DNA of 64,000 nucleotides, from positions 47,873 to 111,872 of the forward strand of contig CAZPVO010000001.1 in NCBI GenBank assembly GCA_964590205.1, read 5' to 3'. The stretch is from an uncultured Candidatus Saccharibacteria bacterium. GTDB taxonomy: Bacteria; Patescibacteriota; Saccharimonadia; Saccharimonadales; JAGQNJ01. Positions 4,441 to 55,894 of the stretch are shown one piece after another (within the stretch, counting starts at the first letter, position 1; every line of letters starts with the position of its first letter). Position numbers and translations under genes: made by a program. Below the pieces are notes generated by a model. The model did not search any database, was not told the origin of the DNA, and was given only the letters and a program-made list of their open reading frames with translations.

Positions 4441-4620
4441 ATGAATAATTATTCCATATTTAATAAGCAGCCAATTATCGAACGGTTGGATTTGTTTGCG
4501 CCCGGGATGGCTCAGCATATTACGCCGATCAAATACGAGGTGATGTACTACTTAAGTGAAATGGCAGGCCAGCACAGCTTAAGGATTATTGAGCCCGAAC
4601 CAACAGCGGAACAAGCATAA
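4441..4620 (+). CDS. Possible small ORF (59 aa), unknown function
   Basis: ATG...TAA, below the ORF-track cutoff, with no clear SD. Its stop codon lies inside the GCATAAGC box. Confidence 0.25.
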   Translation: MNNYSIFNKQPIIERLDLFAPGMAQHITPIKYEVMYYLSEMAGQHSLRIIEPEPTAEQA

Positions 4621-4638
4621 GCTTCTTACGACAGTAGT
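4613..4638 (+). repeat. 26-nt direct repeat, copy 1 (AAGCATAAGCTTCTTACGACAGTAGT)
   Basis: 23/26 identical to 5315-5340 in the same orientation, 702 bp apart. Confidence 0.85.
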
Positions 4639-4649
4639 GTAAGCGTATC

Positions 4650-5237
4650 TTATTTATAAGTCAGCTTACTTGCTAGGGCTTGGTCACTCTCAAGTGTTGC
4701 ATTGGTTGGCGAGCCGGAATAACTGGTTATGATGTACCAGTTGCCGTTTTTCAGAACATTAAGTTGCTTATAGGTTGGGTTGTAATAGGCTTTTTCGCCC
4801 AGACCAGTAACATCTTGAACACCGGCTGGTTTTTTAGCACCAAATTGATCATTATTGGTCGCTGCACCAGTACTGGTTTTAGCTGAACGTACGAGGATGC
4901 TTACACCTTTAGTATTATTTGGCTTAGTGGCACTTGGATCGATTTTTACAGTGTAAACACAGTTTGTGACCGAAACATCATCACTTGAAGCATTCCCAGC
5001 CGAAGTGTCACCCTTGGTAGCTGTGGCGCCCAAGACTTCATTAGCAATGTTCTGCGTCAATACATCACAGGCATCAACATTAACAATTGCTGCCGAACCA
5101 GTTTTAACTTCTACGCTTTGTCCGGTATTGGTGTTAGTAACAGTTGCTTTATTATTGTTATGTAGGACTACATAAGTTCCGACGGCAGCTCCTACAACCA
5201 CAACACCACCGACAATTCCTAAAACTAGTTTGTTCAT
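4650..5237 (-). CDS. Membrane-anchored or secreted hypothetical protein (195 aa)
   Basis: GAGGAGG SD precedes the ATG at 5237 (MNKLVLGIVGGVVVVGAAVG signal anchor). The mature part is T/N/S-rich, and no family was recognised. Confidence 0.7.
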   Translation of the reverse strand: MNKLVLGIVGGVVVVGAAVGTYVVLHNNNKATVTNTNTGQSVEVKTGSAAIVNVDACDVLTQNIANEVLGATATKGDTSAGNASSDDVSVTNCVYTVKIDPSATKPNNTKGVSILVRSAKTSTGAATNNDQFGAKKPAGVQDVTGLGEKAYYNPTYKQLNVLKNGNWYIITSYSGSPTNATLESDQALASKLTYK

Positions 5238-5314
5238 AACTCCTCCTCTTTGCAAATTCTTACTTGTTTCTCAGTATAGGCTCGGTTTATAGACCTGACA
5301 AGAGTTACTTGTAG

Positions 5315-5340
5315 AAGCATAAGCTTCTTGCAAAAGTAGT
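5315..5340 (+). repeat. 26-nt direct repeat, copy 2 (AAGCATAAGCTTCTTGCAAAAGTAGT), overlapping the ssrA -35
   Basis: See copy 1. This copy contains TTGCAA at 5328-5333. Confidence 0.85.
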
Positions 5341-5356
5341 TCAAAAAGGATATAAT
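5328..5356 (+). promoter_or_regulatory. ssrA promoter
   Basis: TTGCAA (5328-5333), a 17-nt spacer, then TATAAT (5351-5356), ending 10 nt upstream of the tmRNA 5' GGGG. Confidence 0.65.
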
Positions 5357-5366
5357 ACTTCGTTAC

Positions 5367-5763
5367 GGGGCTGAATTTTAAGCTCGACGTGGGACATTTT
5401 TGGTTAGATAGCAGGTCGCTTATCAGCGTTATAGGTAAAACCAAGCAATTGCAAAATTACTTGATCGCGCAGTAGCATTTGTTGGTAACATGTTTAGTGT
5501 TCCACGATTGTCACTCGCAACAGCTAGTTTTAGATAACTAGCCGCGCCTCAATCGACGCCAGATAGACTGAGTGTGCGCCATATTTTCTGGACGCTCACT
5601 AATAAGTTGACTCCTTTTTAGTGCTAAGACTTTAGAGTCTGCAGAATTCGTTTTTTTGTCTGTTTAGAAGACGTATTCCCAAGACACCTTAAACAGACTA
5701 AACCTGTAGAATGCTAACTGATACATCTTGCGGACGTGGGTGCAATACCCACCAGCTCCACCA
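5367..5763 (+). ncRNA. ssrA: Transfer-messenger RNA (tmRNA, SsrA)
   Basis: The 5' GGGGCTG pairs with the 3' CAGCTCCACCA, giving a G3:U acceptor stem like tRNA-Ala. A T-arm-like GTGGGTGCAATACCCAC lies just before the 3' end. Length is about 397 nt. The internal tag frame is tentatively GGT AAA ACC AAG CAA TTG CAA AAT TAC TTG ATC GCG CAG TAG. Confidence 0.93.
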
Positions 5764-5768
5764 TAAAG

Positions 5769-5794
5769 GCTTGAACGAAAGTTCGAGCTTTTTT
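5769..5794 (+). terminator. Rho-independent terminator of ssrA
   Basis: Stem GCTTGAAC / GTTCGAGC (one G:U pair), GAAA loop, followed by TTTTTT. Confidence 0.8.
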
Positions 5795-5931
5795 GATCTT
5801 GACGCTTGAGGTAAATAGTGCTAATGTATAGTCAATATTGTTTCTTTTTGAATCCGAGAATTGTTTAGATATTACTTTGGCTTCACAGATGCAGTTAAAG
5901 TATTACTAAATAACAGAAGGATTCTTTTTTA

Positions 5932-7152
5932 ATGCCCTCATATCATTCATCGGGCCGTTCTAACTTTAGAGCTCGCTCAAATCGCACGCATAGTAATAAC
6001 CGTTTTGGCGGCGGAAATCGCCCACGTTCTAATCGCGGACCAGCAAAGCAATATATTGACCCTGCCAAGTTCGTCCAACAAGCGACTGTCCAGAGCGACG
6101 CTCCTTACGAACCAACGCATACTTTTAGCGACTTCGAGGTTCAACCGCTCATAAAAACCAACATTGCCCAAAAAGGCTTTGTGACACCTTCGCCTATTCA
6201 GGATCAGGCAATTCCACATATTCTGGAGGGCAGAGATGTTATTGGGGTTGCTAGCACCGGAACTGGTAAAACGGCTGCTTTTGGCATACCGATTTTGAGC
6301 AAACTACTTGCGCAGCCACGCAATAAAGTGCTTATTATGGCGCCAACCCGCGAACTTGCTCAACAAATTAATGAAGATTTTCGTTCGATTGCCAGTGGCG
6401 GCAGACTACGAAGTGCGCTATTAATTGGCGGCTCAAGTATTGGTCGGCAAATCCAGGATCTCCGGAGCAATCCCCAGATCATTATTGGTACACCTGGTCG
6501 TATCAAGGATCATATTAATCGCCGAACGCTTGCGACTCACACTATTAATTATGTTGTGCTCGATGAAGTCGATCGAATGCTCGACATGGGCTTTATTAAC
6601 GATATTCGCCAAATACTCGGAACTTTGCCTGAGCAGCGTCAATCGCTATTTTTCTCGGCAACTCTTGATGCCAAAGTCGCTGGTCTGATCCAGCAGTTTT
6701 CAAATGATCCTGTGACTGTGTCGGTAAAAACCAGCAACAGCAGCGAGAATGTCAACCAAGATGTGATAGCCTACAGTTCAAAACAAGATCAAATGGATAA
6801 GCTGCATAATTTGCTGATAAAGAATGATGTCGAAAAAATCATTGTGTTTGATGAAACACATCGCAGTGTTGATCGCTTGCATAAAGAACTCGTGGCTCGT
6901 GGCTTTTCAGCAGATTCAATTCACGGTGGTAAAACGCAGGGCCAGCGCAAGCGAGCTTTAGACAACTTTAAAACCAATCAGGTGAATATCTTAGTTGCAA
7001 CTGATGTTGCGGCTCGTGGAATTGATGTTAGTGACATTACCCATGTGGTTAACTACACGCTTCCGCAGTCATACGATGATTATATTCATCGGATTGGACG
7101 AGCTGGACGAGCTGGCAAAATTGGCTATGCTTTAACATTTATTTCTAACTAG
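5932..7152 (+). CDS. DEAD-box ATP-dependent RNA helicase (motif II variant DEVD) with an R/G/N-rich N-terminal extension
   Basis: Q-motif region, ASTGTGKTAAF (motif I), VLDEVDRML (motif II), SAT, and HRIGRAGRAG (motif VI). Confidence 0.92.
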   Translation: MPSYHSSGRSNFRARSNRTHSNNRFGGGNRPRSNRGPAKQYIDPAKFVQQATVQSDAPYEPTHTFSDFEVQPLIKTNIAQKGFVTPSPIQDQAIPHILEGRDVIGVASTGTGKTAAFGIPILSKLLAQPRNKVLIMAPTRELAQQINEDFRSIASGGRLRSALLIGGSSIGRQIQDLRSNPQIIIGTPGRIKDHINRRTLATHTINYVVLDEVDRMLDMGFINDIRQILGTLPEQRQSLFFSATLDAKVAGLIQQFSNDPVTVSVKTSNSSENVNQDVIAYSSKQDQMDKLHNLLIKNDVEKIIVFDETHRSVDRLHKELVARGFSADSIHGGKTQGQRKRALDNFKTNQVNILVATDVAARGIDVSDITHVVNYTLPQSYDDYIHRIGRAGRAGKIGYALTFISN

Positions 7153-7169
7153 CCTTACGAGCAAAGAAA

Positions 7170-8993
7170 ATGAACCAAGATCCAACTAAAATTCGAAACA
7201 TTGCGATTATCGCTCACGTTGACCACGGTAAAACAACCTTGGTGGATGGGCTGTTAAAACAATCTCAAACCTTCCGAGACAACCAGGCCGAGATGGGACA
7301 AGACCTGATTATGGACAGCGGCGACCAGGAAAAAGAGCGGGGCATTACCATTACTGCCAAGGTTACAGCGGTTCAGCACGGTGACTATCGTATAAACATT
7401 ATTGACACTCCAGGACACGCTGATTTTAGTGGCGAAGTAGAACGAACACTTAATATGGCTGATGGCTGCATTTTGATTGTTGATGCCCAGGAAGGCCCAA
7501 TGCCTCAAACCAAATTTGTTCTGAGTAAAGCACTGGCGAGTGAGCTAAAACCAATTGTGATTATCAACAAAATCGACAAGTCAGGCAGTCGAATTAAAGA
7601 GGTAGAAGACGAGCTAGCTGATTTGTTTTTAGAGCTGGCCGTGCACGAAGACCAACTTCACTACCCTGTTTATTACGCTGTTGGCCGCGCTGGTAAAGCC
7701 TGGCAGGAAATTCCAATCGACAGCGAGGCAGACGGAAACTTAGAGCCAATCTTCGACGCAATTGTTGAACATATCCCGGCTCCGACCATTGAAATTGATA
7801 AGCCATTTCAAATGCTCGTAACGGCGCTTGCTTGGGATAGTTTTAAGGGTAAATATGCAATTGGCCGAATTACGAGAGGCACAGTTAAGGCTGGTGATGT
7901 CGCCACACTTTGCAAAAAAGATGGATCGCTCGTAAAAACCAAAATCGATAAGGTTTATATGAGTCATGGAGTAAGCAAGTTTGAAGTCGAACAAGGAGTG
8001 GCGGGCGACATCGTACAGCTTACCGGAATTGCCGATGCACAAATTGGGGAGACAATTGCTGACGCTGAGAATCCAGAAGCTTTGCCTGTACTGGAAGTCG
8101 AAGCGCCAACGCTCAAAATTTACCTTGGCCCAAACACCTCACCATTCAAGGGTACAGAAGGTGAATTTAGCACATCCCGACAAATTGGCGACCGCTTGCA
8201 GAAAGAATTAGAAACTAATGTTGGCTTACGCGTAGAAGAACAGGGCATTGGCTTTTTAGTGTCTGGTCGTGGTGAGTTGCATCTGAGCGTGCTGATCGAA
8301 ACCATGCGCCGCGAAGGCTTTGAATTTGAAGTTGGCCGGCCGCAAGTAGTGACTAAAGAACAAGATGGCCAAACCGTAGAGCCAGTTGAAGAACTTATTA
8401 TCGAGGTTCCAGCCGAGCACGTTGGCACAGTTCAACAGGAACTTGGCGCTCGTCGAGCGACTCTTAAAGAACAGTTTGCTAGCCCCAAAGGTGTGACAAA
8501 ATTAGTATACGAAATACCAACTCGGGCCTTCCTAGGACTTCGCAATATTCTTATGACCAGCACTAAAGGAACAGTTATCATGAACAGCCTGATGGTTGGC
8601 TACGAACCACTCGGCCAGTCGCTCCAACAACTGCGAAACGGCGTATTAATTGCATACGAGACAGGCATAACAACACCGTATGCACTGCAAACTGCCGAGG
8701 AGCGAGGCACATGTTTTGTGGGCGCAGCTGAAAAGGTTTATGCCGGTCAGATTGTTGGGCTCAACAAGCGAGGTGATGATATGGAAATAAATGTTTGCAA
8801 AGCTAAACACCTGACAAATATGCGCAGCAGCTCGAGTGATGGCGTGGTTCAACTAACGCCGCCAACCATTTTTAGCCTGGAGCAATGCATTGATTTTATC
8901 GAAAACGATGAATTACTCGAGGTCACGCCAAAATCACTTCGACTGCGCAAAAAAGAACTAGACCCCAACAAGCGCAAACGTCTGAATAAATAA
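7170..8993 (+). CDS. typA: Translational GTPase TypA/BipA
   Basis: [32 protein letters not shown]; 607 aa; EF-G-like domain order without domain IV. Confidence 0.95.
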
Positions 8994-9110
8994 TTCTTTA
9001 GCGAAACGCTTATGTAGCAGCTATCTTTTTACATGGTGCTTTGAAATTTACAACATCCTGGCGTATAGTTATATCCAAGTAAACATTAGCATTTTGCAAA
9101 GGAAAAACAG

Positions 9111-9650
9111 ATGGCAAAGAAAAAAACGAATAGCGATAAGACACTTTATGCATTAGCAGTCGCAAGAATGTTGCTCGGACTTGTATTTATATGGGCATTT
9201 CTTGATAAATTACTCGGGCTTGGTTTTTCGACTTGTCGAGATGCCAAAACTAATGCTGTAACTACAATGTGTAGCAAAGCGTGGATTAACGGTGGTTCAC
9301 CGACCACAGGTTTTCTAAAACTTGCTACCAGAGGCCCGCTTGTTAATTTCTACCACGGCTTAGCTGGTAACGGCTTTGTTGATGTGTTATTTATGGCTGG
9401 CCTGCTCTTAATCGGGCTGGCGCTGTTTAGTGGTATTGGCATGAAGATTGCTACCGTAACAGGTTCGTTGCTGCTGCTTATGATGTATACGGCTGCATTG
9501 CCACCGACAACTCATCCGTTCCTTGATGATCATATTATCTATATAACGCTTTTGATGGCGTTGTTGTTCAGTAATTCTCAGCAAAAATGGGGACTACGCG
9601 ACTGGTGGGTTAAGCAATCTTTCGTGAAGCGAATGCCGATTTTGGAATAA
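9111..9650 (+). CDS. DoxX-family integral membrane protein
   Basis: Four hydrophobic segments. The N-terminal ALAVARMLLGLVFIWAFLDKLLG resembles the DoxX/DoxD signature helix. Confidence 0.5.
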   Translation: MAKKKTNSDKTLYALAVARMLLGLVFIWAFLDKLLGLGFSTCRDAKTNAVTTMCSKAWINGGSPTTGFLKLATRGPLVNFYHGLAGNGFVDVLFMAGLLLIGLALFSGIGMKIATVTGSLLLLMMYTAALPPTTHPFLDDHIIYITLLMALLFSNSQQKWGLRDWWVKQSFVKRMPILE

Positions 9651-9694
9651 TCAGCTTGAACAAACCATTAGCATTAGGTAACTTTTAAGTAAGT

Positions 9695-10870: not shown

Positions 10871-10924
10871 CAATTTGATTCTGGCGTGCTTATGCTACAA
10901 TTGTCTTTGCACATTAAGTTAACA

Positions 10925-11097
10925 ATCAAGTATCACGAGTGCAGCGAGAGAACTAGCTCTATGACCTGCCGGCAACCAGTCCGTAACTAACGAGACGAAC
11001 CAGGTGCCCCTTCTAGCCCAAGTGGAAAGATAGGTAAGTTCATATGCTCCTTTCTATTCCGCTCGAGCGGGGATGATACGAAAAAGGAGTATTTTTT
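10925..11097 (+). promoter_or_regulatory. SAM-I (S-box) riboswitch with a probable SD-sequestering expression platform
   Basis: TATCACGAG...GCGAGAGAACTAGCTCTATGACCTGCCGGCAACC...GGTGCCCCTTCTAGC...AGATAGG matches the conserved S-box core (ATCAAGAG / GAGGGA / ATGA..CC.GCAACC / GGTGC.AA.TCC). CTCCTTT (11047-11053) is complementary to the SD AAAGGAG (11083-11089). The element lies directly upstream of metK. Confidence 0.75.
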
Positions 11098-12069: not shown

Positions 12070-12072
12070 TTA

Positions 12073-12366
12073 CTATCGAGGATATTTAGGCCAATCGGCA
12101 CTCAAGAGCGGATTTGGCATGGTAAAAATTGAAGCATTAACGTTTGCCGTCGGCGTGCCTTCTTGAGCAATACGCGCATGCATGTGCATATCTGGAATAA
12201 CACTTGAGTCGCGTTTGCTGCTACTCTTGTATGTATCAATGAGGCGTATAGCTCTTAGTAGTGGTAACTGACCACGTAGCATTCTGGCAGTAATTTCGCT
12301 TTCGCCTACTACTTCGGCGACTATAACTTCCGGTTTACTTTCTGGATTACTTGCACCTCTTGTCAT
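12073..12366 (-). CDS. Hypothetical protein (97 aa)
   Basis: The only long ORF in a 400-nt gap, convergent with metK. It has no SD, and an AT-rich -10-like sequence sits close to the ATG. No family was recognised. Confidence 0.35.
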   Translation of the reverse strand: MTRGASNPESKPEVIVAEVVGESEITARMLRGQLPLLRAIRLIDTYKSSSKRDSSVIPDMHMHARIAQEGTPTANVNASIFTMPNPLLSADWPKYPR

Positions 12367-12421
12367 AAACTCACGATAATATATCTTGCTTAAAACGTCA
12401 ATAGTATGAAATTGCTTATGC

Positions 12422-12450
12422 TTGCATTGGCGGTAAGGCAGAGTGATACT
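12422..12450 (+). promoter_or_regulatory. Candidate promoter of the PurO-like gene, abutting a GCTTATGC box
   Basis: GCTTATGC (12414-12421) is followed immediately by TTGCAT (12422-12427), a 17-nt spacer and GATACT (12445-12450). Confidence 0.45.
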
Positions 12451-12477
12451 AAGCCTAACAAGTAACTGGAGGGATAA

Positions 12478-13329: not shown

Positions 13330-13353
13330 GCTTAAACGCTGTATAATTGGGTC

Positions 13354-15002: not shown

Positions 15003-15066
15003 ATCTTAAATTAAATCATTCGTACACTTGACTTGCATAGCATAAGCTAGTTAGGCTGGGTATACG

Positions 15067-17647: not shown

Positions 17648-17847
17648 GATTGTTAATTATATAATTTAAATGATTAAAAGTCAATAATTCATAAGCAGTT
17701 TTGTGCATCTTTGTTGTGTTTTTGTAAAAACCATATTCTTACCTGTTAATACCTAACTTTACAGAGACTAGAGTTGTATATTCCGCTTTTGCTTATGTAA
17801 TACTGTGTGCTTACTATGTAAAGATAAGCAAAGTCTCAGGAGGGTTT

Positions 17848-23849: not shown

Positions 23850-23917
23850 TTACCACTGTAATCGGGATATAATAAAACAGATTGTAGCCATAAGCTTTTA
23901 AGGTGGGCAAATAAAAC

Positions 23918-26503: not shown

Positions 26504-28648
<2,145 letters not shown>

Positions 28649-28975: not shown

Positions 28976-28986
28976 GCTTCCCTAAA
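28971..28986. terminator. Small hairpin shared by two convergent stop codons
   Basis: TTTAGG-cttc-CCTAAA. The TAG of atpC (28973-28975) and the TAG of the minus-strand gene (28982-28984) both lie in the stem arms. There is no U-tract. Confidence 0.25.
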
Positions 28987-29749
28987 GATATGCTGCCTGG
29001 TTGACATGCCCGCTATCTTCACCAAGTTGTGCTACTTCTTGCAAGGCATTTCCACCAAATCGTGCCCAGAGAGCTGCATCAGTTTTGCCACTTCTTTCTA
29101 TGAGCGCAAACGGCAAGCTGGCATTCGAGAATTCGATTAATGAGGGGCTTAAACGCTGCACCTGGAAAACAGATAAATCAGTTGGTCGTAACACGACGGC
29201 CTCACAAGGAACAAAGTCTAATACGCCATAGGCATTTTGGACAGACGAAGTACCAAGTCGTTGTATGATTGCCTGATACTTGCCTTGTAAAGCAGGATCA
29301 ACATTGAGGCGCTCATGTGTGGTATCAACTGCGTGTAAAACGGTAGTATGATCGCGGTCGAATAAACGGCCTATAATTGGGTAACTCTGCTTATTTACAT
29401 CACGTGCAATTGTCATTGCCATTTTACGGGCCGCAACGATTGGGCGAGATCTTACCTTTGAAAATATTGCATCTACTTCAACCCCAAAAACCGTTGAGGT
29501 ATTTTGTACGATATCTTCAATTGGTGTAAGCGGAGTTTCAAAATCAACACCCGGTTGAGATTTGGCTGACAAAAGTATCCCTGGCTTTTTAACGATTTCA
29601 ACCACACCTTCATCTTCGTGAAGGACAATAAAAGGGACGCGAGGAAACTGCGCTGCATTTTGTTGTGCTACGTCAAGAACGCCTTGCTTTATTGCTAAGT
29701 CGGACTCACTAATAGCAGTCTGCGGATCTACCTCAGTATTTTTAGTCAT
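28982..29749 (-). CDS. Stand-alone DnaA domain-IV (DnaA-box-binding HTH) protein with unique N- and C-terminal regions
   Basis: IFSKVRSRPIVAARKMAMTIARDVNKQSYPIIGRLFDRDHTTVLHAV aligns almost residue-for-residue with DnaA domain IV (SK.RSR.va.pRQiAMyLar.lt..S.p.IG..Fg.RDHTTVlHA). There is no AAA+ Walker motif. The ATG at 29749 is preferred over the TTG at 29758. Confidence 0.75.
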   Translation of the reverse strand: MTKNTEVDPQTAISESDLAIKQGVLDVAQQNAAQFPRVPFIVLHEDEGVVEIVKKPGILLSAKSQPGVDFETPLTPIEDIVQNTSTVFGVEVDAIFSKVRSRPIVAARKMAMTIARDVNKQSYPIIGRLFDRDHTTVLHAVDTTHERLNVDPALQGKYQAIIQRLGTSSVQNAYGVLDFVPCEAVVLRPTDLSVFQVQRLSPSLIEFSNASLPFALIERSGKTDAALWARFGGNALQEVAQLGEDSGHVNQAAYL

Positions 29750-29844
29750 ATTTGACAATCTTGCTACTGTTTGGCCTAATTTGCAAGCATAAGCAGCGCT
29801 TTACTCTGGCAAAACAGAGGTGAAAATGCTATAATCTGCAGACT

Positions 29845-37687: not shown

Positions 37688-37739
37688 GTTGGTGCTCAAG
37701 TGTGAAGCTCAGAACAGAGGTCAAACTGCTTAGAAAAAG

Positions 37740-37768
37740 TTGTTGAAAAGCTAACATTTTGGTATAAT
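37740..37768 (+). promoter_or_regulatory. Candidate extended -10 promoter for the long leader of the LysM/CHAP gene
   Basis: TTGTTG (37740-37745), a 17-nt spacer ending in TGG, then TATAAT (37763-37768). Confidence 0.45.
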
Positions 37769-38030
37769 CTTGTTCAGCAACTTATGCCTTTGCTATAGGG
37801 GTATAACAGAGGTCAGGAGTTGCGCTTTAGCTGTCGATTACAATAAATCAAGAGGTCGATTTCTTGAAAAAGTCATTAACCAACGCTAAAGTTTCGGTGC
37901 TCCCTCTATAATTGTTTGCACCGGGAGAATTTGTATTAGTAGTTCACCTCAAACTCTTAACCGAGAGGTTTCCGCTCGTTTAGGAGAATTACAATCTGAT
38001 CTTAAGCAACGCCAGTGGTATCGCCGTGCG

Positions 38031-39086
38031 TTGTCTAAGAAGAATCGCAAGCGTACTATTCGTTATAGTTTGCTGGCCGCCAATCTGGTAGTTTTGGTAA
38101 TGGCGATCGTTTTTGTAACGCATCAGTCAAGCCCAAATCAACCTGTTAATTCAAGCGTGCTAGCCTCACCAAATAACGAAGTTGCTGCTAATCCACTTGA
38201 TCAATTATCATCTGCTGATATTGCTGTGCATGTTGCTCGCGCAACTGGTTTGCCTGAGTCTACCTCTGTTGTTAACAAGGCTGACACCGAGAATGCGCAG
38301 CTCAATATCACCGAATCAAACAACGTGGTTACTTCTAAGCCACAAGTTATTGCTACCGGACTAAAATCACGTCGAGATATTCAAAAATATGTAACCCAGC
38401 CAGGTGATACAGTTTCTAGTATTGCCGCTAAATTTGGTATAACGTCAGATACAATTTTGTGGTCTAACAACCTTAAAAGTGACAGCGTGGCACCCGGCAA
38501 GGAGTTAATCATTTCGCCAATTAACGGTGTTGTATATCAGGTTAAACCTGGTGATACGGCTGATAGCGTGGCTGCAAAATTCCATGGTCAAAAAGATCAA
38601 ATCGTTGCATTTAACGACACTGAGCTGACTGGTTTGCCAGTTGGCGAATATATTGTTATTCCAAATGGTCAGCCTGGTGGAACTGGTGGAAATGCGGCCC
38701 TTGCTAATGTTGCCTCAGCCAGTGGTTTTGCATGGGGTGGTGGTGGCGCAGTTTATAGTGGTAACGGCTATGATTATGGTTACTGTACTTGGTGGGCTGC
38801 AAACCGCCGTGCTCAGATTGGCCGACCAATTCCTAGCAACTTAGGTAACGCCAGTACATGGAAAATCCTTGCTCAACGGGCTGGTTTTGGCGTTGGTAAC
38901 GCACCGCAACCCGGCGCGGTTATCTGGACACCGCCACATGATTATTACGGACATGTTGGATTTGTTGAATCTGTAAATCCAGATGGTAGTGTTGTTGTAT
39001 CGGAGATGAACGTTGTTGGTTGGGGCCGAGTGGATACGAAGACGCTTTCTCCAGAGCAAGCTGCCGGTTACGGCTACATCTATTAG
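38031..39086 (+). CDS. Secreted or membrane-anchored peptidoglycan hydrolase with 2x LysM and a C-terminal CHAP domain
   Basis: TTG is the first possible start in the frame. K/R-rich N-terminus plus a TM segment. Two LysM repeats (YVTQPGDTVSSIAAKFG.., YQVKPGDTADSVAAKF..). The CHAP motifs are YGYCTWWAANRR (catalytic Cys) and YGHVGFVESV (His). Confidence 0.85.
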   Translation: MSKKNRKRTIRYSLLAANLVVLVMAIVFVTHQSSPNQPVNSSVLASPNNEVAANPLDQLSSADIAVHVARATGLPESTSVVNKADTENAQLNITESNNVVTSKPQVIATGLKSRRDIQKYVTQPGDTVSSIAAKFGITSDTILWSNNLKSDSVAPGKELIISPINGVVYQVKPGDTADSVAAKFHGQKDQIVAFNDTELTGLPVGEYIVIPNGQPGGTGGNAALANVASASGFAWGGGGAVYSGNGYDYGYCTWWAANRRAQIGRPIPSNLGNASTWKILAQRAGFGVGNAPQPGAVIWTPPHDYYGHVGFVESVNPDGSVVVSEMNVVGWGRVDTKTLSPEQAAGYGYIY

Positions 39087-39209
39087 GCTGCGCTTCGCTG
39101 GCCCCTAAGACAAACCTACGGTTTTTCTCATCGCGCCGAAGAGTCGAATGAATCGTCTCTGTGGGCTTCTCTTTTCCCTTAGGACGTCACCTCTGTTATA
39201 ATTTGGGTA

Positions 39210-42810: not shown

Positions 42811-42969
42811 TATAGAACTCCACGCTTAGATTTAAATTCATAATAAACCTCTTATTGCATGTATGTCAAGAAAATTGTATTGCGCTTATGCCTGTTGCAG
42901 CCTTTTGGGCGATGCATAAGAGTCATAGGCTAGAAAAACTCCCATAAAATCTGTATAATAGATCAGCTT

Positions 42970-48382: not shown

Positions 48383-48465
48383 GTCTACGTATTATACACG
48401 AGCATTTTTTCGCAAAAAGTGTTATACTAACGTGAGCAAATTACAGATAAGCGGAGGCTTAAATT

Positions 48466-49152: not shown

Positions 49153-49180
49153 CTTTCCATTCTTAAAAAGAACATAAACC

Positions 49181-49204
49181 ATTACTTTGGACCGCCAAAG
49201 TAAT
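49181..49204. terminator. Perfect 10-bp hairpin after rplY (possible terminator, strand unclear)
   Basis: ATTACTTTGG-accg-CCAAAGTAAT. There is no U-tract on the + strand, and a T-rich run follows on the - strand. Confidence 0.35.
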
Positions 49205-49550
49205 CAAAACTCTTGGGTGCTCTCGCTCACACATATATCTGTTGATAGAAATCAGGCTCGCTGCGGAACTCCTCTCTTAAGTGCCACTGGCACTTCTGTT
49301 CGTCAATCAGTCCTCGCGCCCAAGGGCGCCTGATTTCCACAACATCTATTCTGTACACTCGAGATACCCAGAAGGATATAAACCCGGCTCGAGAAAACTG
49401 AGGAAGATTGTCAGGCTTGAACTGAGTAACTGCAGAGGACTTCTGGAGCGAAGCGGAATCCGCAGGCTGTTGTTGACTTTGACAGTGAGTAGTCACGAAA
49501 AAACGTAGCCCAGCAGTTTTTGATTCTTTTTGCTGACAAAAAGAATAGAG

Positions 49551-51365
49551 TTACTTGTAGCCCTCAGCTTGTTTGCTGAAGAGGTCGTGGTACAGACCTT
49601 TATTTTTCATAAGTTCTTCATGGGTGCCTTGTTCAATAAGCTGACCTTCATCTAGAACAATAATTCTATCAGCACGACGCACCGTACTAAAGCGGTGGCT
49701 TACGATCAAAGCTGTTTTGTTTTTGTAATGCTCAAAGATGGAGTTAAAAATTTCATACTCGGCTTTGGCATCAATGGCTGATGTCGGCTCATCTAAAATA
49801 ATCATATTTGCATCGCGGTAAAAAGCTCGGGCAATCGCTACACGTTGCCATTGACCACCGCTCGGTTCGACACCCTTTTTAAAACTGCTGTCGAGTACTG
49901 TCTCCCAGCCATGCTCGTAGCTTTCCACCATTTCATCAACTTCACCAAATTTGGCAGCACGCTCAAGAAGTTTTTTATCTTGAGGCTTAGTTGATCGACC
50001 AATGGAAATGTTTTCTTCAATTGGCAGTGGGTAGGAGTTAAACTCTTGAAATAATGTTGACAGTTGTGCATACCAGGATTCAATATCGACTTCTTGTAGA
50101 TCAACTCCATCAACTAAAATACGTCCGTTTGTTGGTTTGTAAAAGCGCAGCAATAATTTTATGAGTGTTGTTTTGCCAGCACCATTTTCGCCCACAAGTG
50201 CGACGTGCTCCCCGGATTTTATCGATAAACTCAGATCCTTGAATATTGCTTTGTCTTGGTCGGGGTAGGTGAATGAAACGTTTTCAAATGTAATTTCTGG
50301 AATTTTTTTAGTTGTTAGCTCAATAGCGTTTTTGCTGTTAACAATTGTTGGCTTAGCATCAACTAAGTTAAAGTAACTATCGGCAAATAACAAGCCTTCT
50401 TGCATGCGAGTTAGCGTTCCAAAAATTGTGTTTATAGAACCACCAATTCGCAGCAATGCTCCAGCCAGGAAAAAATATCGATCCAAAGATATCGATCGAG
50501 CTAATAATTGCTTAACCAGTACTATTTCGCCAATTGCCGTACCTGCAACTTCCAGCATCTTTGTCGATACCAGTGCCCGCGTTGCACCTTTGTATTTAGC
50601 GCGCTGCTCATCATAAAATTTTACGTTCATGTTATCGATTTTTTTCAGTAGATAATGTGAAGCTTGCGTACTGCGAATTTCCATCTGAGCCTTAGCACGT
50701 CTAAAAATATTTTCGAGGCCAAAAAATATATGCCGCTCATCACCCTTGGCATTCCAAACAAACCATTGCATTTTGGCAATGCGACTTTCCGCAATCAAAC
50801 TTGGAATTAGGAACAACGCAATCAATGGCACAATCCACCACGTAATCTGCGAAACAACAGCTGTGATAGCTATGAAGCGGATAATTCCGTACAGCAAATC
50901 CAGGTTAGCATCAGACAGGTTTGGAATTTGCCAAATGTATGCACCACTGACTTTATTGATTTCGTTGCGCATCTCTTGATCGTAAAAATCGGCAATATCA
51001 ATTCGGGCAATTGAACCGAGCAGACTATTTATTGACCAACGCACCAGCGAAAAGTACAGCATGCGCTTGCCATAACTCATAGCAAAAAATCCAAGACCAG
51101 TAATGGCAGAGGAAATAATATCAATTGCTACCCACATCCAGATGTAATCAGTTTGGCCAGAGACAATAAAATGCGCTAAAAGTGCACCAATCTTTGCAGT
51201 GGCATAAATAGTAGCAATGGAGCCGCCGATTTCTAAAAATGAGCCAAGAAAGAAAATAGCAACCGCAGAAGGCCGGACGCTTAAAGCAACTTTAAATAAT
51301 CTAAAGCCAAGCCGTGCATTTTTTTTGAACGGTAGTTTAGATGTTGTGTCGTCCGCTTTGGCCAT
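49551..51365 (-). CDS. ABC exporter, fused permease-ATPase (type I exporter), third of three
   Basis: GENGAGKTTL Walker A, PSGGQWQRVAIARA signature, ILDEPTSAID Walker B. The ATG at 51365 (MAKADD..) shares its A with the upstream TAA (TAATG). Confidence 0.9.
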   Translation of the reverse strand: MAKADDTTSKLPFKKNARLGFRLFKVALSVRPSAVAIFFLGSFLEIGGSIATIYATAKIGALLAHFIVSGQTDYIWMWVAIDIISSAITGLGFFAMSYGKRMLYFSLVRWSINSLLGSIARIDIADFYDQEMRNEINKVSGAYIWQIPNLSDANLDLLYGIIRFIAITAVVSQITWWIVPLIALFLIPSLIAESRIAKMQWFVWNAKGDERHIFFGLENIFRRAKAQMEIRSTQASHYLLKKIDNMNVKFYDEQRAKYKGATRALVSTKMLEVAGTAIGEIVLVKQLLARSISLDRYFFLAGALLRIGGSINTIFGTLTRMQEGLLFADSYFNLVDAKPTIVNSKNAIELTTKKIPEITFENVSFTYPDQDKAIFKDLSLSIKSGEHVALVGENGAGKTTLIKLLLRFYKPTNGRILVDGVDLQEVDIESWYAQLSTLFQEFNSYPLPIEENISIGRSTKPQDKKLLERAAKFGEVDEMVESYEHGWETVLDSSFKKGVEPSGGQWQRVAIARAFYRDANMIILDEPTSAIDAKAEYEIFNSIFEHYKNKTALIVSHRFSTVRRADRIIVLDEGQLIEQGTHEELMKNKGLYHDLFSKQAEGYK

Positions 51366-53128
51366 TATTCCTCCAAAAAGCCGCCGGACTGGTGGGCCCA
51401 CAGCTTGGCATATGCACCTTTTTTGTCGAGCAATTCCTGGTGCGTGCCTTGCTCAATTATTGTACCTTTATCCATAACCACAATTCTATCCATTTGTCGC
51501 AAGGTAGACAAACGATGAGCGATAGCGATAACGGTCTTGTCGTGCCATAAATTCTCCAAGGCTTGTTGAACTAAGACTTCACTTTCACTATCCAGGGCAC
51601 TGGTGGCTTCATCCAAAATTAAGATTGGCTTGTCATCTAAGAAGGCACGAGCGATGGCGATTCGCTGCCGCTGGCCAGCTGATAGTTTTACGCCGCGTTC
51701 ACCAACAAGTGCTTCGTAGCCGTCTTTAATTTGGGCAATGAACTCGTCGGCATGAGCCTGCTTTGCTGCCTTTACGATATCCACTTGTGTGTAAGAGCGC
51801 TCAGTCGCGTAAGCAATGTTCTCAGAAATAGTACGATGAAACAGACTAGTGTCTTGCGGTACAAAGGAAATCAATTTGGAGATTTGCGCTGGAGTGCATT
51901 CTTTACCATCCAAACTAAATGGTTCGCTGCTAACGTTGTAATAATCCAGCAATATTTTGGTTAGGGTTGTTTTGCCACTTCCGCTTTTGCCAACAATACC
52001 AATTTTTTCGCCTTTTTTAATAGCAAGGTTAATACCAGAGAGCACAGTAACATCAACTTTATCTGGGTAGGCGAAGCTAAGATTTGAAAGGCTAAGATTT
52101 TCTTTGAACTCAACATTAGAACCATTTTCAGACTTTACACCTACCTCATTAAGTAGTTTTGGACCAAACAAGTAGTTGTGTGCTTCTTCAGCACGCGCCA
52201 TTTTAAGATTGAACTGCGAGATAAACCACAGTGCATCCCAAATTGTTGTGGTGAAGAGTAGAATTGCTGAAAGTAGCGTCGCAAACTGAGCAATATTAAG
52301 CTGGCCATGCAAGAACAAGTAAACGTTCAAAATAATTGTAGCTGGCCAAATAAAATCGCGTACAAAGAATGACATCGTCATCCAAAAAATAACATCAGCG
52401 TTGAAAGATTTGCCGGCACTTTTTATCATCCTATCTTGTTCTTGCTTTATGGTTTGAATTTCAGAGGCTTCTTTTTTGAATGATTTTACGTTTACAAAGT
52501 TGGCCATCGTGTCGACAATCTTGCCATTTTTGGTAGACTTCACATCGGCAACGATTCGCTCTTTGTCAAACGCGTTCCGCATGGCGTGACGGCCAACAAG
52601 AAGCATGCACAGCAAACCAGTAATAAAAATGGCGCCCGTCTGCCAATTGATTGCAGCTAAAATTACGATCAGCGCAATAATGCTGACAATTTGAGCAACA
52701 TAGTTGAAGAACACACTGTCAAGAAAGTCATGATACTCCTGAGAGATCGTATTAATGTAAGAAGAAAGCTTACCAGTGAACTTATCCACGAAGTATGGGT
52801 ATGGCTGACGGATAGTTTTTTCGAACAGGATATTTTCATACTGATAAGAGAGCGGCAGAATAAAACGTAAGTAAAGCTGTTCACTCAGTCGCCAGATCAA
52901 ATTATGCCCAGTACTCAACAGAATTAATACAATCGTAAATACAATGGCGCCATGGCGATTCACTGGATTTGCAGCGAGAGCACCGGTTAGTTTACCAATA
53001 AAAATAGGCATAAGAGCGAGCAGTGTATCTGAAATCAAAAAGCTAGATGCAACAATAGCTGCGCCGCGTTTATGTTTGAGTAAGTGCGCAATAAATGAAC
53101 GTAACGCTGGGTGACTCGATTTACTCAT
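51365..53128 (-). CDS. ABC exporter, fused permease-ATPase, second of three
   Basis: GKSGSGKTTL, LSAGQRQRIAIARA, ILDEATSALD. The ATG at 53128 (MSKSSHPALR) overlaps the upstream stop in ATGAGTAA. Confidence 0.9.
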   Translation of the reverse strand: MSKSSHPALRSFIAHLLKHKRGAAIVASSFLISDTLLALMPIFIGKLTGALAANPVNRHGAIVFTIVLILLSTGHNLIWRLSEQLYLRFILPLSYQYENILFEKTIRQPYPYFVDKFTGKLSSYINTISQEYHDFLDSVFFNYVAQIVSIIALIVILAAINWQTGAIFITGLLCMLLVGRHAMRNAFDKERIVADVKSTKNGKIVDTMANFVNVKSFKKEASEIQTIKQEQDRMIKSAGKSFNADVIFWMTMSFFVRDFIWPATIILNVYLFLHGQLNIAQFATLLSAILLFTTTIWDALWFISQFNLKMARAEEAHNYLFGPKLLNEVGVKSENGSNVEFKENLSLSNLSFAYPDKVDVTVLSGINLAIKKGEKIGIVGKSGSGKTTLTKILLDYYNVSSEPFSLDGKECTPAQISKLISFVPQDTSLFHRTISENIAYATERSYTQVDIVKAAKQAHADEFIAQIKDGYEALVGERGVKLSAGQRQRIAIARAFLDDKPILILDEATSALDSESEVLVQQALENLWHDKTVIAIAHRLSTLRQMDRIVVMDKGTIIEQGTHQELLDKKGAYAKLWAHQSGGFLEE

Positions 53129-54902
53129 CGATGAATCCTCCCGATTGATGAGCCCACAGTTTTGCGTACAAACCCTTTCGATTACGAAGTTGGTGATGAT
53201 CACCCTGCTCAACAATTTTGCCTTTGTCTAAAACAATAATGCGATCCATGTGTTGAATGGTACTGAGTCTGTGAGCAATAACAAGTGTGGTACGGCCTTC
53301 CATTAATTTCCAAAGGGCATCTTGAATTAGCTTTTCGCTGCCACTATCCAGGGCACTGGTTGCCTCATCAAGAACCAAAATCGGAGCGTCTTTAAGCATG
53401 GCGCGCGCAATTGCAACGCGCTGTCTCTGTCCACCAGAAAGCTTGATACCTCGCTCGCCAACCAAAGTGTTGTAGCCATCCGACAATTCTTTAATAAAAT
53501 CATGTGCATGAGCTAATTTGGCAACAGCTTCAATCTCAGCCTGAGTAGCCTCGGGTTTACCATAGCGAATGTTATCGGCAATTGAACGGTGGAACATCAG
53601 CGGATCTTGCGGCACATAGGCGATATGATTGCGTAAATCAGTTTGAGCAATATGAGCAATATCTTGACCGTCAATTTTGATTGAACCCTTTTGGATGTCC
53701 ACAAAACGCTGCAATAAACTGGTGATAGTTGTTTTACCGCCACCACTTGGTCCAACCAGCCCAATTTTTTCACCGCCTTTTATTTCAAAGTTTAAGTTTT
53801 TAAAAACTGGCGACAGGCTATCCTTATAGCTAAACGTAACATCATTAAAAGCAATAGATCCTTCCTGGATGGCTAGTTTGTCCGGATTATCAAGATCACG
53901 AATCTCGGGTTCAATATTTAAAATCTCAGCCATTTCAGATGCATCACCGAGTGCGCGGTTGATGTTGCGCATATTTCGGCGAGCTTCCCACAGGTGATTA
54001 ACAATTGTCATCGTGTAGCTAACTGCCAAATACAGCGCACCAGCTGGAGCCTTGAGAGTTGTAACCGCAAGCACACCTGTAGTGAAGGCCAAAATATTAA
54101 TCATAGCCGTACCAGAATGAGCAATCATATCGTTTTTTGCTGCGATATGAAAAAGATCAAAATACTTTTTACTGGTTGTGGAAGCTTGTTCGTGGAACAG
54201 ATCGGCCTCTTGCATTTCACCAGCGTAAGCTCTTACGGTTGAAACATTGGTAATATTGTCGGCAATCTTAGCTGTGCGATCACTTTCGCTTATGGCCAGT
54301 TTTCGGTCATACGGAAATTGCTTCTTCAGGCGATGATACATGACGAAGAAGTAAAGGAGACTGACAAGCAGTAGTGTAAATGCATAGAGAGGGTTAACAA
54401 TAAACAAAATAACAATCGAGGCAACGAAGCTTGTAAAATGCGGAACTATCGCCCACATAAAATCATCCATAATTCGCTCATAGCCGTTAATAAACTTATT
54501 TACTTGAGAAACTAGCGCTCCACCAAAGCGATTGGCATGAAAGGCGCTACTTTGATGCTGAATATGGTTAAAAACTTTCTCAACCATTCGCTGCATTGAG
54601 CGAACTTCAAAAGTCCAGGTTATGACGACTTGTGCACGCCAAATCAAAAAGCCGATAATGCTTAAGATAATGTAGCCAACAAGATAGGGCATAAAAATCT
54701 TAAAATCTAGTGGTTGATGGGTAGCGTAGAGTGCCTGCAAACGGTTAAAGGCTCGTGCCACAATAAGCTGAGGGATAACATTTTGAATAAGCACAGCAGA
54801 ACTAGCACCAAAAAGGCTGGTGATAAATAACTTCTTATCCGGCCGTGTAAATTGCCAAAACTGTCTAAGAATATCCTTATTGATATTGCTTTTCTTACTC
54901 AT
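53121..54902 (-). CDS. ABC exporter, fused permease-ATPase, first of three
   Basis: GPSGGGKTTI, LSGGQRQRVAIARA, VLDEATSALD. The C-terminus (YAKLWAHQSGGFIDE) is nearly identical to that of the second gene (YAKLWAHQSGGFLEE). Confidence 0.9.
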   Translation of the reverse strand: MSKKSNINKDILRQFWQFTRPDKKLFITSLFGASSAVLIQNVIPQLIVARAFNRLQALYATHQPLDFKIFMPYLVGYIILSIIGFLIWRAQVVITWTFEVRSMQRMVEKVFNHIQHQSSAFHANRFGGALVSQVNKFINGYERIMDDFMWAIVPHFTSFVASIVILFIVNPLYAFTLLLVSLLYFFVMYHRLKKQFPYDRKLAISESDRTAKIADNITNVSTVRAYAGEMQEADLFHEQASTTSKKYFDLFHIAAKNDMIAHSGTAMINILAFTTGVLAVTTLKAPAGALYLAVSYTMTIVNHLWEARRNMRNINRALGDASEMAEILNIEPEIRDLDNPDKLAIQEGSIAFNDVTFSYKDSLSPVFKNLNFEIKGGEKIGLVGPSGGGKTTITSLLQRFVDIQKGSIKIDGQDIAHIAQTDLRNHIAYVPQDPLMFHRSIADNIRYGKPEATQAEIEAVAKLAHAHDFIKELSDGYNTLVGERGIKLSGGQRQRVAIARAMLKDAPILVLDEATSALDSGSEKLIQDALWKLMEGRTTLVIAHRLSTIQHMDRIIVLDKGKIVEQGDHHQLRNRKGLYAKLWAHQSGGFIDE

Positions 54903-54976
54903 GTGCTTACCTGCGACTTTTTGTCGTCTTACTTATATAGTAAAGTGTTTTTGCTTATTTTGGTTTAAAAAGAGGA

Positions 54977-55036
54977 TTAAAGGCAGCTGTCGCTGATAGG
55001 AGCGATCGTCTTGCCGGTCGTTTTTGTAATTCTCAT
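54977..55036 (-). CDS. Candidate 19-aa leader or small-peptide ORF (MRITKTTGKTIAPISDSCL) upstream of the ABC genes
   Basis: AAGGAAAGGAG lies 8 nt upstream of the ATG, giving an SD as strong as those of most genes here. The ORF sits in a 218-nt spacer. Confidence 0.25.
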   Translation of the reverse strand: MRITKTTGKTIAPISDSCL

Positions 55037-55120
55037 GATGTTCGCTCCTTTCCTTTACTTTGACAATTCGAATATTGTACCACCTTTTGTCAACAGATAG
55101 CAAACGAGCAATACGTATAC

Positions 55121-55819
55121 TTAAAAATCGTGATACTGCCGAGTAACTTTCCAAACGTCGACACTTCTGCCTGTTTGCTTAGAAAGCACGCGATAAGAAA
55201 CTGTCACAGGAGCTTTCCCGCCAATTGGTACGAATGCTCGATAGTCAGTGACGCGATTGGCAGTTTTCCCATTGTCAGAAATCACGACAGTGCTACAGTT
55301 TCTCAAATATCCATAAGTACTAACTTGTCCCCACGGATCGTAAGGCTGATGACCAATTGTGTTTTGCTTGAAGGGAGCCTTGAGCAAGACATCAGTTGTC
55401 TCAGCACTCGCGGTAACAGGTTTGTAGTATATACAGAACTGCACATCCTTATGGGGCACACCCTTTGCGTTTTCGAACTGCAATTGCATATCAACTGAAA
55501 CATCGGCACCTGCTATTGTGTTACCGTCTCGGGGGTATACAAATTTAACTTGTTTGTTTTGACTTCCTAGGTTGTAATCGATATAAGGTGCTACTGTAGA
55601 GCCGCTCACACCAGTTACTTTTAGTTCCGAGTCGGCAGCTGTCCATGTTGCTACTGTGGTCGCTGCATAGCTTTTATATGCGAAATAGCCGGCTCCAACA
55701 ATTAAGAACACTGCCACGAAAACAAAAAACTTGGCTCGGCTATCGAGCGCTCGTAATGTACTAATTTGAAAAGATTTAGAAGGTTTCTTGGAAGTTGTTT
55801 GTTTCTTAGTTTTTGGCAT
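55121..55819 (-). CDS. Membrane-anchored or secreted hypothetical protein (232 aa)
   Basis: K-rich N-terminus, one TM segment (FFVFVAVFLIVGAGYFAY) and a beta-rich external part; no family recognised. Confidence 0.7.
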   Translation of the reverse strand: MPKTKKQTTSKKPSKSFQISTLRALDSRAKFFVFVAVFLIVGAGYFAYKSYAATTVATWTAADSELKVTGVSGSTVAPYIDYNLGSQNKQVKFVYPRDGNTIAGADVSVDMQLQFENAKGVPHKDVQFCIYYKPVTASAETTDVLLKAPFKQNTIGHQPYDPWGQVSTYGYLRNCSTVVISDNGKTANRVTDYRAFVPIGGKAPVTVSYRVLSKQTGRSVDVWKVTRQYHDF

Positions 55820-55894
55820 TATTGAACCTTTTTGTTTTAGAGATGTATTACTTTAATATATACTACAAAGCATAAGCTGAGTCAAAACAAAGAG

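Follow-up and report, generated by a model that had tools for sequence, protein, structure and literature searches.

Several short DNA elements are known to act beside the core hexamers of bacterial promoters. UP elements are A/T-rich and degenerate, and their proximal subsite, at about -46 to -38, is bound by the C-terminal domain of the alpha subunit of RNA polymerase; class II activator sites, such as those of CRP and FNR, are centred near -41.5 and consist of dyads of 16–22 bp bound by known dimers, usually next to a poor -35 hexamer; and the extended -10 element places TGn or TRTG directly 5' of the -10 hexamer. The DnaA box, with the consensus TTWTNCACA, is a further short word considered here. 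The stretch analysed, called the window, comprises 64,000 nucleotides (64 kb) from the genome of an uncultured Candidatus Saccharibacteria bacterium (GenBank assembly GCA_964590205.1, contig CAZPVO010000001.1, positions 47,873 to 111,872), and it contains an 8-mer, GCATAAGC on one strand and GCTTATGC on the other (the box), which is concentrated in the spacers between genes, is tied to promoters and to TTGCA-type -35 hexamers, and is probably an undescribed element of promoter control. The literature searched holds no paper with this word, none linking Saccharibacteria to leaderless promoters, and no Saccharibacteria promoter architecture or Patescibacteria promoter maps; a first-pass annotation of the window could not assign the box to a known regulon, and the searched literature names no such element.

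The gene map of the window is based on open reading frames (ORFs) and leaves spacers totalling 4625 nt, or 7.2% of the window, whose base composition is 44% G+C. Nine exact copies of the box are present, with GCATAAGC on the plus strand at 4615, 5317, 15040, 29787 and 55870 and GCTTATGC on the plus strand at 10888, 12414, 42884 and 26787. The eight copies that the first-pass annotation had placed in spacers are all exact at its coordinates, while its single copy within a gene does lie inside atpG but starts at 26787 rather than 26786. Dinucleotide shuffles of the window (n = 100) gave 3.49 ± 1.72 copies, and none of them reached nine. The expectation of well under one copy in the spacers was likewise upheld, as 8 are observed against 0.11 expected from spacer composition, and 1000 dinucleotide-preserving shuffles of the spacers gave a mean of about 0.23 and a maximum of 3; no 8-mer containing three or more G/C was seen more than 6 times in any of these shuffles. 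Coding copies number 1, against about 3 expected by chance. Among all spacer 8-mers GCATAAGC ranks first; the 9-mer AGCATAAGC has seven copies in spacers, the 7-mer CATAAGC has 12 against 0.56 expected, and the counts in spacers and in coding sequence are 8 and 1 for GCATAAGC and 5 and 0 for the 10-mer AAGCATAAGC, in line with the spacer restriction first proposed. An origin by chance or composition is ruled out by the window shuffles, the spacer shuffles and the k-mer ranking.

When the sites are aligned, information spans about 11 bp, cAAGCATAAGC(t), with an A preceding the 8-mer in 7 of 8; nothing is conserved outside these positions, and no second half-site or partner motif was found within 40 nt of the boxes. 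The word is rigid in spacers, where 8 exact copies stand beside about 10 one-off copies of 24 possible one-off words, and in almost all of these variants the change is at one of the two end bases or at position 5 or 6. One-mismatch spacer copies, which had been reported before, do exist (at 9008, 17689, 17785, 17791, 23888, 37780 and 42914) but are only weakly enriched; window-wide, the 9-mer with at most one mismatch has 25 matches against 19.9 expected, and its one-mismatch copies do not exceed chance. Partial dyad symmetry is present at four of the eight sites, as AAGC-ATAA-GCTT or TAGC-ATAA-GCTA with arms of 3–5 bp. The CATAAGC core occurs in five of the six divergent spacers, four of which hold the exact 8-mer, and the sixth has only ATAAGC. 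TTGCA or TGCAA lies at most 4 nt from 5 of the 8 boxes, compared with 4.3% of random spacer positions (binomial p = 7.7e-6). The exact copies are given below; promoters and transcript starts are sequence predictions throughout.

4615–4622, plus strand: GCATAAGC, covering the TAA stop (4618–4620) of a small leaderless-type 59-aa ORF (4441–4620); between convergent genes, 28 nt beyond the stop of the minus-strand gene 4650–5237, in repeat 4613–4638
5317–5324, plus strand: box, then 3 nt, -35 TTGCAA (5328–5333), 17 nt, -10 TATAAT (5351–5356) and tmRNA (5367–5763)
10888–10895, minus strand (GCTTATGC on the plus strand): box flush with the metK -10 TACAAT (10896–10901)
12414–12427, plus strand: GCTTATGC flush with TTGCAT, the -35 of the PurO-like gene, then 17 nt, GATACT (12445–12450) and ATG 12478
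15040–15047, plus strand: box 19 nt ahead of the trehalase ATG (15067), preceded by TTGACT (15028–15033) and TTGCAT (15033–15038)
26787–26794, minus strand: sole coding copy, inside atpG (Pfam ATP-synt gamma match)
29781–29794, minus strand: perfect 14-mer GCTTATGCTTGCAA, then 17 nt, CAAGAT (29763–29758), 8 nt and ATG 29749 of the DnaA-domain-IV (DnaA-IV) gene
42884–42921, plus strand, uvrA: box GCTTATGC (42884–42891), then 3 nt, TTGCAG (42895–42900) and an imperfect inverted partner GCATAAGA (42914–42921)
55870–55877, plus strand: box in a 75-nt divergent spacer, within the 17-nt spacer of minus-strand TTGACT (55885–55880) and TATATA (55862–55857)

About half of the copies lie directly at or beside a TTGCA-type -35. 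The first-pass annotation had read TTGCA as a -35 next to the box at three genes, which is borne out for the PurO-like and DnaA-IV genes, where 17-nt spacers lead to a -10, but not for uvrA. The best uvrA promoter is the extended -10 TGTATAAT (42952–42959), which precedes the ATG by 10 nt and is separated from the box by about 60 nt; TTGCAG, lying about 50 nt from this element, is therefore not its -35. The DnaA-IV box directly abuts the -35 TTGCAA in a predicted leaderless layout; on the plus strand this copy follows TAATTT by 4 nt and occupies about -54 to -47 relative to the extended -10 of mnmA (TGCTATAAT, 29827–29835). Similarly, the 12414 box lies 12 nt upstream of a divergent leaderless promoter, TTGACG-17-TATCGT (12401–12373), of a 97-aa gene with its ATG at 12366. 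The statement that the box at the tmRNA gene (ssrA) has the opposite orientation, 3 nt before TTGCAA, is confirmed; this copy occupies about -46 to -39, in the reverse orientation to the flush copies, and is also 15 nt upstream of a divergent -35, TTGTCA (5301–5296), within repeat 5315–5340. The tmRNA itself is confirmed by Rfam as a full-length match of 86 bits at 5367–5763; ARAGORN reported no tmRNA in the window.

The metK box was correctly described as standing just before TACAAT; it occupies about -20 to -13, and its TGC forms the TGn extension of the -10. The predicted metK promoter is supported, with a transcript start just downstream, because a SAM-I riboswitch lies at 10927–11036 (plus strand) in the metK leader (39.3 bits, E = 8.5e-8; Rfam gathering score 44.4). 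Being below the family threshold, this riboswitch is missed by a standard scan, and the metK leader is kept in most of the Saccharibacteria metK loci fetched. For the 15040 box no convincing -10 was found for either of the upstream hexamers TTGACT and TTGCAT, and the 55870 box lies 5 nt past a plus-strand -10, TATACT (55859–55864), where the transcript of 55895 is predicted to begin. On the minus strand, the 4615 box is flush with TTGTTC, 18 nt and AATAAT (4614–4585), which may form an antisense promoter. The coding copy at 26787 is probably a chance occurrence outside the element set. Apart from metK, the hexamers following the seven other spacer copies are TTGCAT, TTGCAA, CTGTTG, TTCTAC, TTGTTC, TATGCA and TTTGTA. 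No constant distance to a -10 or -35 fits all eight spacer copies in either orientation; with position and orientation varying among the eight, and 4615 placed between convergent genes, they cannot all be explained by one promoter position.

The sole long-range likeness between sites is a direct repeat of 26 nt, 88% identical, at 4613–4638 and 5315–5340. Each copy of it begins with the box, and the pair flanks an ORFan gene (4650–5237, minus strand) for a predicted secreted or membrane protein; the repeat may have arisen by duplication of a promoter segment, or it may be a scar left by a small insertion.

Because no close sequenced relative is available for footprinting, distant relatives were used for comparison. 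The window MetK, at 323 aa unusually short, has a best identity of 78–80% in genome and metagenome collections, the PurO-like protein has its next relative at 56% identity, and the gene order of the window is not conserved in the relatives compared; Logan contigs matching window proteins were short, with two inside the window and one reaching about 1 kb beyond its right end. The sample consists of 160 loci of distant Saccharibacteria (about 2 Mb), every one picked around metK, and since some loci come from one lineage, counts use distinct sequence contexts only. In the first 80 loci the density of the 8-mer is 0.22 per kb in spacers and 0.04 per kb in genes, about 5-fold, and the 7-mer gives an equal ratio of about 5-fold over all 160. 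The spacer density in the window is 1.7 per kb, which compared with 0.22 per kb in the relatives indicates a strong amplification specific to the lineage of the window. About 12 of the 32 distinct spacer copies in relatives simply amount to the TRTGn extension of a -10: GCTTATGC stands directly before TAnnnT in 12 of 32, and GCATAAGC never does. The pooled extended -10 profile of the relatives reads T(-17), R(-16), T, G, C(-13). A mild excess of GC is present at -20/-19 in extended -10 promoters of the TnRTGC type (17 of 102), and TATGCTATA is one of the top spacer 9-mers.

A further position in the relatives is that upstream of the -35. There, 4 of the 32 copies abut a TTGNNN-17-(-10) promoter, compared with about 1% expected, and none does so in the opposite orientation. 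A looser form of the box, GCTNNTGC, is found again at this position in distant Saccharibacteria, directly against TTGCAA, and the earlier description of a genome-specific cis element thus stands in part: the box is non-random, restricted to spacers and tied to promoters and to TTGCA, but its looser composite with TTGCAA is wider than this genome. GCTNNTGCTTGCA has 11 distinct sites in the window and relatives, whereas eight scrambled controls have 0–3, all of them coding. With at most one mismatch, the 14-mer has 10 spacer matches and 4 'coding' matches in sequence of which spacers make up 11%, so that its spacer density is about 100 times its gene density, and at least 2 of the 4 'coding' matches resemble promoter regions mis-called by the ORF map. 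When 16 composite sites with at most two mismatches were examined, the ATG of a long ORF was found 42–45 nt from the start of the word in 8, and in two further composite sites at 47 and 49 nt. The distance of 42–45 nt equals that for a box, a -35, 17 nt, a -10, 6–8 nt and a leaderless start, which therefore places the box at -44 to -37.

Promoters flanked by the box differ from others in their downstream part. T is found at -12 in 3 of 8 box-flanked promoters compared with 96 of 109 TTGACW promoters, and a TG extension in 0 of 8 compared with 51 of 109, while a leaderless ATG follows 5 of 8 compared with 96 of 848 other TTGNNN matches. TTGACA-type promoters in relatives carry an ordinary A-rich upstream flank instead of the box. 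The tmRNA promoters of the window and of the loci L011 (GCATTAGC) and L013 (GCGTAAGC) have the box or a box variant 26 nt before the -10, and all three have GCNTNAGC 3 nt before the -35. In addition, upstream of the orthologues of gene 9111, five other lineages have kept (C)ATAAGCA in the interval from the -10 to the Shine-Dalgarno sequence. The genes downstream of the composites are unrelated in function and include ThrC (threonine synthase), a Pup-ligase homologue and many ORFans. One 'promoter', at L129:955, was dropped because its sequence resembles the metK terminator hairpin.

The reading favoured here, to which a probability of roughly 0.4 is given, is that the box is a promoter-upstream element or operator beside the -35 that has been multiplied in the lineage of the window. 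It is enriched in spacers, linked to TTGCA and fixed in position in relatives, as judged by leaderless ATGs; from this position we infer a contact with polymerase or a factor, and likewise the direction of the effect. In mechanistic terms, GCTTATGC, read towards the transcribed gene, would be a promoter element of double-stranded DNA whose main home is just upstream of a TTGCAA-type -35, at about -46 to -37, and it would help or control RNA polymerase at promoters relying on the -35 region. Such reliance is suggested because the -10 is weak, having no TG extension and usually no T at -12. Many of the box promoters would drive leaderless mRNAs. The likeliest reader would be a sequence-specific protein sitting beside sigma region 4 or the alpha C-terminal domain in the manner of a class II activator, and polymerase itself, by direct contact, would be a less likely one; a protein reader is favoured because the word is rigid, and also by its G+C content, its inversion at the tmRNA promoters, its multiplication in this lineage and the copies located elsewhere. 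An element linked to polymerase is favoured by the strict directional flush placement across distant lineages and by the absence of regulon logic downstream, and since the downstream genes are functionally unrelated, a promoter-type element fits better than the regulon of a pathway. The lineage would have multiplied the word to roughly one copy per three promoter-bearing spacers. The metK copy would act otherwise: it would supply the TRTGn extension of a -10 and work via the known TGn contact.

Several points weigh against this reading. No more than 3–4 of the 8 exact copies lie at -46 to -37: the 10888 copy is at -20 to -13, the 55870 copy is within a promoter spacer and at a predicted transcript start, 15040 is without convincing promoter placement, 4615 is between convergent genes, and about 60 nt separate 42884 from the best uvrA promoter. 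Compared with the flush copies the tmRNA copy has the reverse orientation, and the box has 50% G+C, unlike the A/T-rich sites of the alpha C-terminal domain. In the relatives only about a quarter of the TTGCAA promoters have the box, and none of the upstream regions of 48 tRNA genes carries GCNTNAGC, which shows that the box is not a general strong-promoter element. No candidate reader protein was found; the MarR, ArsR and DnaA-IV proteins of the window have other predicted sites. The sites are few, all their promoters are predicted, and the relatives were sampled only around metK. A bolder version of the favoured reading would make GCTNRTGC flush with TTGCAA a new basal 'extended -35' element of -35-dependent, TG-less and mostly leaderless promoters across Saccharibacteria and perhaps the wider Patescibacteria, with polymerase, the housekeeping sigma or a group-specific polymerase-associated factor as its reader, and with a near-invariant word in a third of the promoter regions of this lineage; this version is considered improbable.

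The comparison with known elements also draws on variant copies in the window, which are as follows.

3542–3555, minus strand: variant GCTTGTGC flush with TTGCAA, then 17 nt and TAGAAT (3524–3519); promoter-like, with no ORF downstream (the 3548 promoter)
9008–9015, plus strand: one-off GCTTATGT, 15 nt past the typA/bipA stop codon
17689–17696: TCATAAGC, in the same divergent spacer as the variants at 17785 and 17791
17785–17804, plus strand: GCTTTTGC at 17785, and GCTTATGT at 17791 flush with AATACT (17799–17804), upstream of pyrF; the latter forms an extended-10-type unit
23888–23895, plus strand: one-off CCATAAGC in the atp operon leader, 4 nt before the Shine-Dalgarno sequence AAGGTGGG
37780: near-copy ACTTATGC

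The extended -10 element is matched by the metK copy (GCTTATGC followed by TACAAT) and by the 17791 variant (GCTTATGT followed by AATACT), in which the TGn of the box is directly 5' of the -10 and T-A-T-G occupies -18 to -15, as in the 12 copies of the relatives. However, 7 of the 8 spacer copies in the window have no following -10 hexamer, so that this likeness fails for the whole set, and the first three bases of the box, GCT at about -20 to -18, are outside the known motif, GC being mildly enriched there. With the proximal UP subsite the box would share its place directly upstream of the -35 at the predicted tmRNA, PurO-like, DnaA-IV and 3548 promoters, and it is tied to promoters with a weak -10; relative to predicted promoters it lies between about -38 and -60 at 5317, 12414, 29787 and 3548, but not at 10888, 55870 and 4615. 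In contrast to UP elements, the box is a rigid word with almost no internal variants, and it is missing upstream of the tRNA genes of the relatives; because the box has 50% G+C, the earlier suggestion of an UP-like element, in the classical sense, was not upheld. By what is known of Escherichia coli promoters, location and fixed spacing match a class II activator site or a proximal UP subsite. The centre of the box at about -40 to -42.5, its fixed spacing to the -35, its weak partner -10 and, in divergent spacers, a site common to two back-to-back promoters all resemble class II sites, and the position is that of a subset of copies, namely the flush composites (-44 to -37) and the tmRNA copies of three lineages (-46 to -39). 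Unlike class II sites, the box is 8–11 bp long with arms of at most 5 bp in four of the eight sites, and its -35 (TTGCAA) is good and seemingly part of the motif.

A resemblance to SlyA/MarR-type operators (e.g., TTAGCAAGCTAA) in the half-sites (T/A)AGC ... GCT(A/T) serves as a lead only; the half-site spacing is 2 nt there and 4 nt in the box, and the MarR gene of the window has a different palindrome. A sigma-54 promoter (TGGCAC-N5-TTGCW, with GG at -24 and GC at -12) was rejected, as there is no GG 10 nt upstream of TTGCA.

The box could instead be the operator of a global lineage-specific regulator or nucleoid protein, with a site of 10–12 bp, cAAGCATAAGC(tt), and no required position relative to polymerase; such a protein would act as a repressor from sites overlapping the spacer, -10 or transcript start, and as an activator from sites lying upstream. 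The two orientations and many positions relative to hexamers in the window, the rigidity of the word with its few one-off variants, the amplification in this lineage (1.7 against 0.2 copies per kb of spacer in relatives), the partial dyad symmetry at half of the sites and the operator-like placement of (C)ATAAGCA at the transcript start of the gene 9111 orthologues are all what such an operator predicts. A symmetric operator does not predict the directional, hexamer-flush placement in relatives (12 against 0 at the -10, 4 of 32 against 0 at the -35), which therefore speaks against it, as do dyad arms of just 3–5 bp that are missing in half of the sites, flanking genes without regulon logic, and the separate long palindromes that lie upstream of the genes for the two transcription factors of the window, one MarR-type and one ArsR-type. 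This operator is possible but doubtful. Slightly more doubtful is the view that the box has no single function and sums unrelated promoter preferences that share sub-words, namely TTATGC of the TRTGn extended -10, the contexts of TTGCAA-type -35 hexamers and ATAAGC just before a Shine-Dalgarno sequence, plus one local duplication. The -10-flush copies of the relatives (12 of 32), the rank of TATGCTATA among spacer 9-mers, the GC at -20/-19 in 17 of 102 TnRTGC-type promoters, the occurrence of ATAAGC shortly before Shine-Dalgarno sequences at 23888, 17824, 48447 and 55870, and the location of 4615 and 5317 within the 26-nt repeat are in line with this view; yet it leaves aside that the full 8- to 10-mer is exact at eight independent sites with flanks unrelated bar that one repeat, that exact copies about equal all one-off variants (8 against about 10, over 24 possible words), that just one window copy is of the extended -10 type, and that spacer shuffles never come near 8 copies.

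Two other candidates for the origin of the word are very improbable. The protein encoded at 28982–29749 (minus strand), which has only DnaA domain IV, could be a paralogue turned transcription factor that binds the box and regulates its own gene: the only zero-mismatch GCTTATGCTTGCAA lies directly upstream of that gene, the protein has a Bac_DnaA_C helix-turn-helix domain, and TTATGC of the box corresponds to the first six positions of the relaxed DnaA box. The likeness ends at 6 of 9 positions, as CACA is missing from the box. When the protein is aligned to E. coli DnaA domain IV (PDB 1j1v), the equivalents of R399, P423, D433, H434, T435 and H439, which we take from the 2003 co-crystal structure to be base contacts, are kept, and the protein is therefore predicted to bind canonical CACA-containing boxes. 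DnaA boxes are neither enriched nor clustered in the window: TTATCCACA with at most one mismatch has 19 matches where 15.6 are expected, and no match falls at any copy of the word. Slightly less likely still is that the word serves for DNA uptake, or that it is what remains of a small mobile repeat or the site that such a repeat targets. An exact, lineage-specific word in both orientations and one copy pair forming 26-nt direct repeats around a single ORFan gene would suit such an origin, and PMC10633639 describes Saccharibacteria as naturally transformable. An uptake sequence is unlikely for want of a massive over-representation in genes (1 coding copy against about 3 expected, 9 per 64 kb in total), and so is a repeat of the REP/MITE type because flanks are unrelated past about 11 nt, with no shared hairpin or terminal repeats, except for the pair at 4613 and 5315; the tight tie to promoter hexamers is unexpected for either kind of element.

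A hairpin in RNA or DNA, or a terminator, was also rejected, as arms are at most 5 bp and present in half of the sites only, and a terminator scan was empty at the boxes. At the tmRNA gene the box is not transcribed, because it lies upstream of the promoter, and given this copy and the two orientations an RNA element is unlikely. Small ORFs from the ATG in GCTTATGC were dismissed, having only 4–30 codons and nothing in common. The MarR and ArsR regulators are unlikely readers on sequence grounds, because each has a different long palindrome before its own gene. The MarR-type gene (1189–1680), in an operon with an MFS transporter, has ATACTT-N8-AAGTAT just upstream (1147–1188), and the ArsR-type gene (63455–63784) has two copies of ACTTAATTAAGT just upstream (63399–63454); both palindromes are likely autoregulatory operators.

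Other features of the window were also noted. About 15 nt past the unit of GCTTGTGC, TTGCAA, 17 nt and TAGAAT lies a terminator-like hairpin (3504–3481), with no ORF between, in a spacer of 313 nt; the minus-strand unit 3481–3547 could represent an attenuator or an RNA of very small size. Another word, AACAGAGGT, is also recurrent, with five copies against 0.45 expected; four of the five are in spacers, and in two cases a box or a variant of it is located about 20 nt away. The positions of this word are as follows.

29813–29821, plus strand: AACAGAGGT
37713–37721, plus strand: AACAGAGGT
37805–37813, plus strand: AACAGAGGT
38262–38270, minus strand: AACAGAGGT
39189–39197, minus strand: AACAGAGGT

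This word is often part of TATAACAGAGGT[C/G], in which a -10-like TATAAC is fused to a Shine-Dalgarno-like AGAGGT. The spacers 37688–38030 (343 nt) and 49153–49550 (398 nt) have no ORF of at least 100 aa and no Rfam match at gathering thresholds, and two AACAGAGGT words and a variant of the box are found in the former. Leaderless starts of genes seem to be common: the -10 is followed by an ATG after 6–8 nt at several window genes, including 12366 (minus strand), 29749 (minus strand) and 4441 (plus strand), and an A-T-G signal appears exactly 7–9 nt past the hexamer in 543 extended -10 sites of the relatives. In the relatives, L082 (718–820), L040 (9872–9900 and 20096–20220) and L051 (988–1050 and 3146–3210) have locally clustered spacer repeats of their own, comprising CCTCTCAC arrays, GAATATGG arrays and a duplicated segment of about 60 nt; their spacer 8-mers were rejected as dispersed words of the same kind, being local tandem or paired repeats unrelated to the box. 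At 49551–54902 (minus strand) lie three tandem paralogous genes of about 600 aa each with a common conserved 61-nt block, and this is the one stretch of the window with a flattened GC skew.

Almost nothing is known of how transcription starts and is controlled in the ultra-small, host-dependent Patescibacteria, whose genomes encode few regulators. If the box is only a lineage-specific operator, it would be an ordinary, though previously undescribed, regulon signal. As a short exact word at a defined place beside the -35 of leaderless promoters, conserved in position in distant Saccharibacteria, it would offer a concrete handle on this question: it predicts transcript starts, it is open to testing in the few strains that can be cultivated and transformed, it may be used to build or tune expression cassettes for Saccharibacteria, and it may serve as bait for a global regulator or a group-specific polymerase contact.

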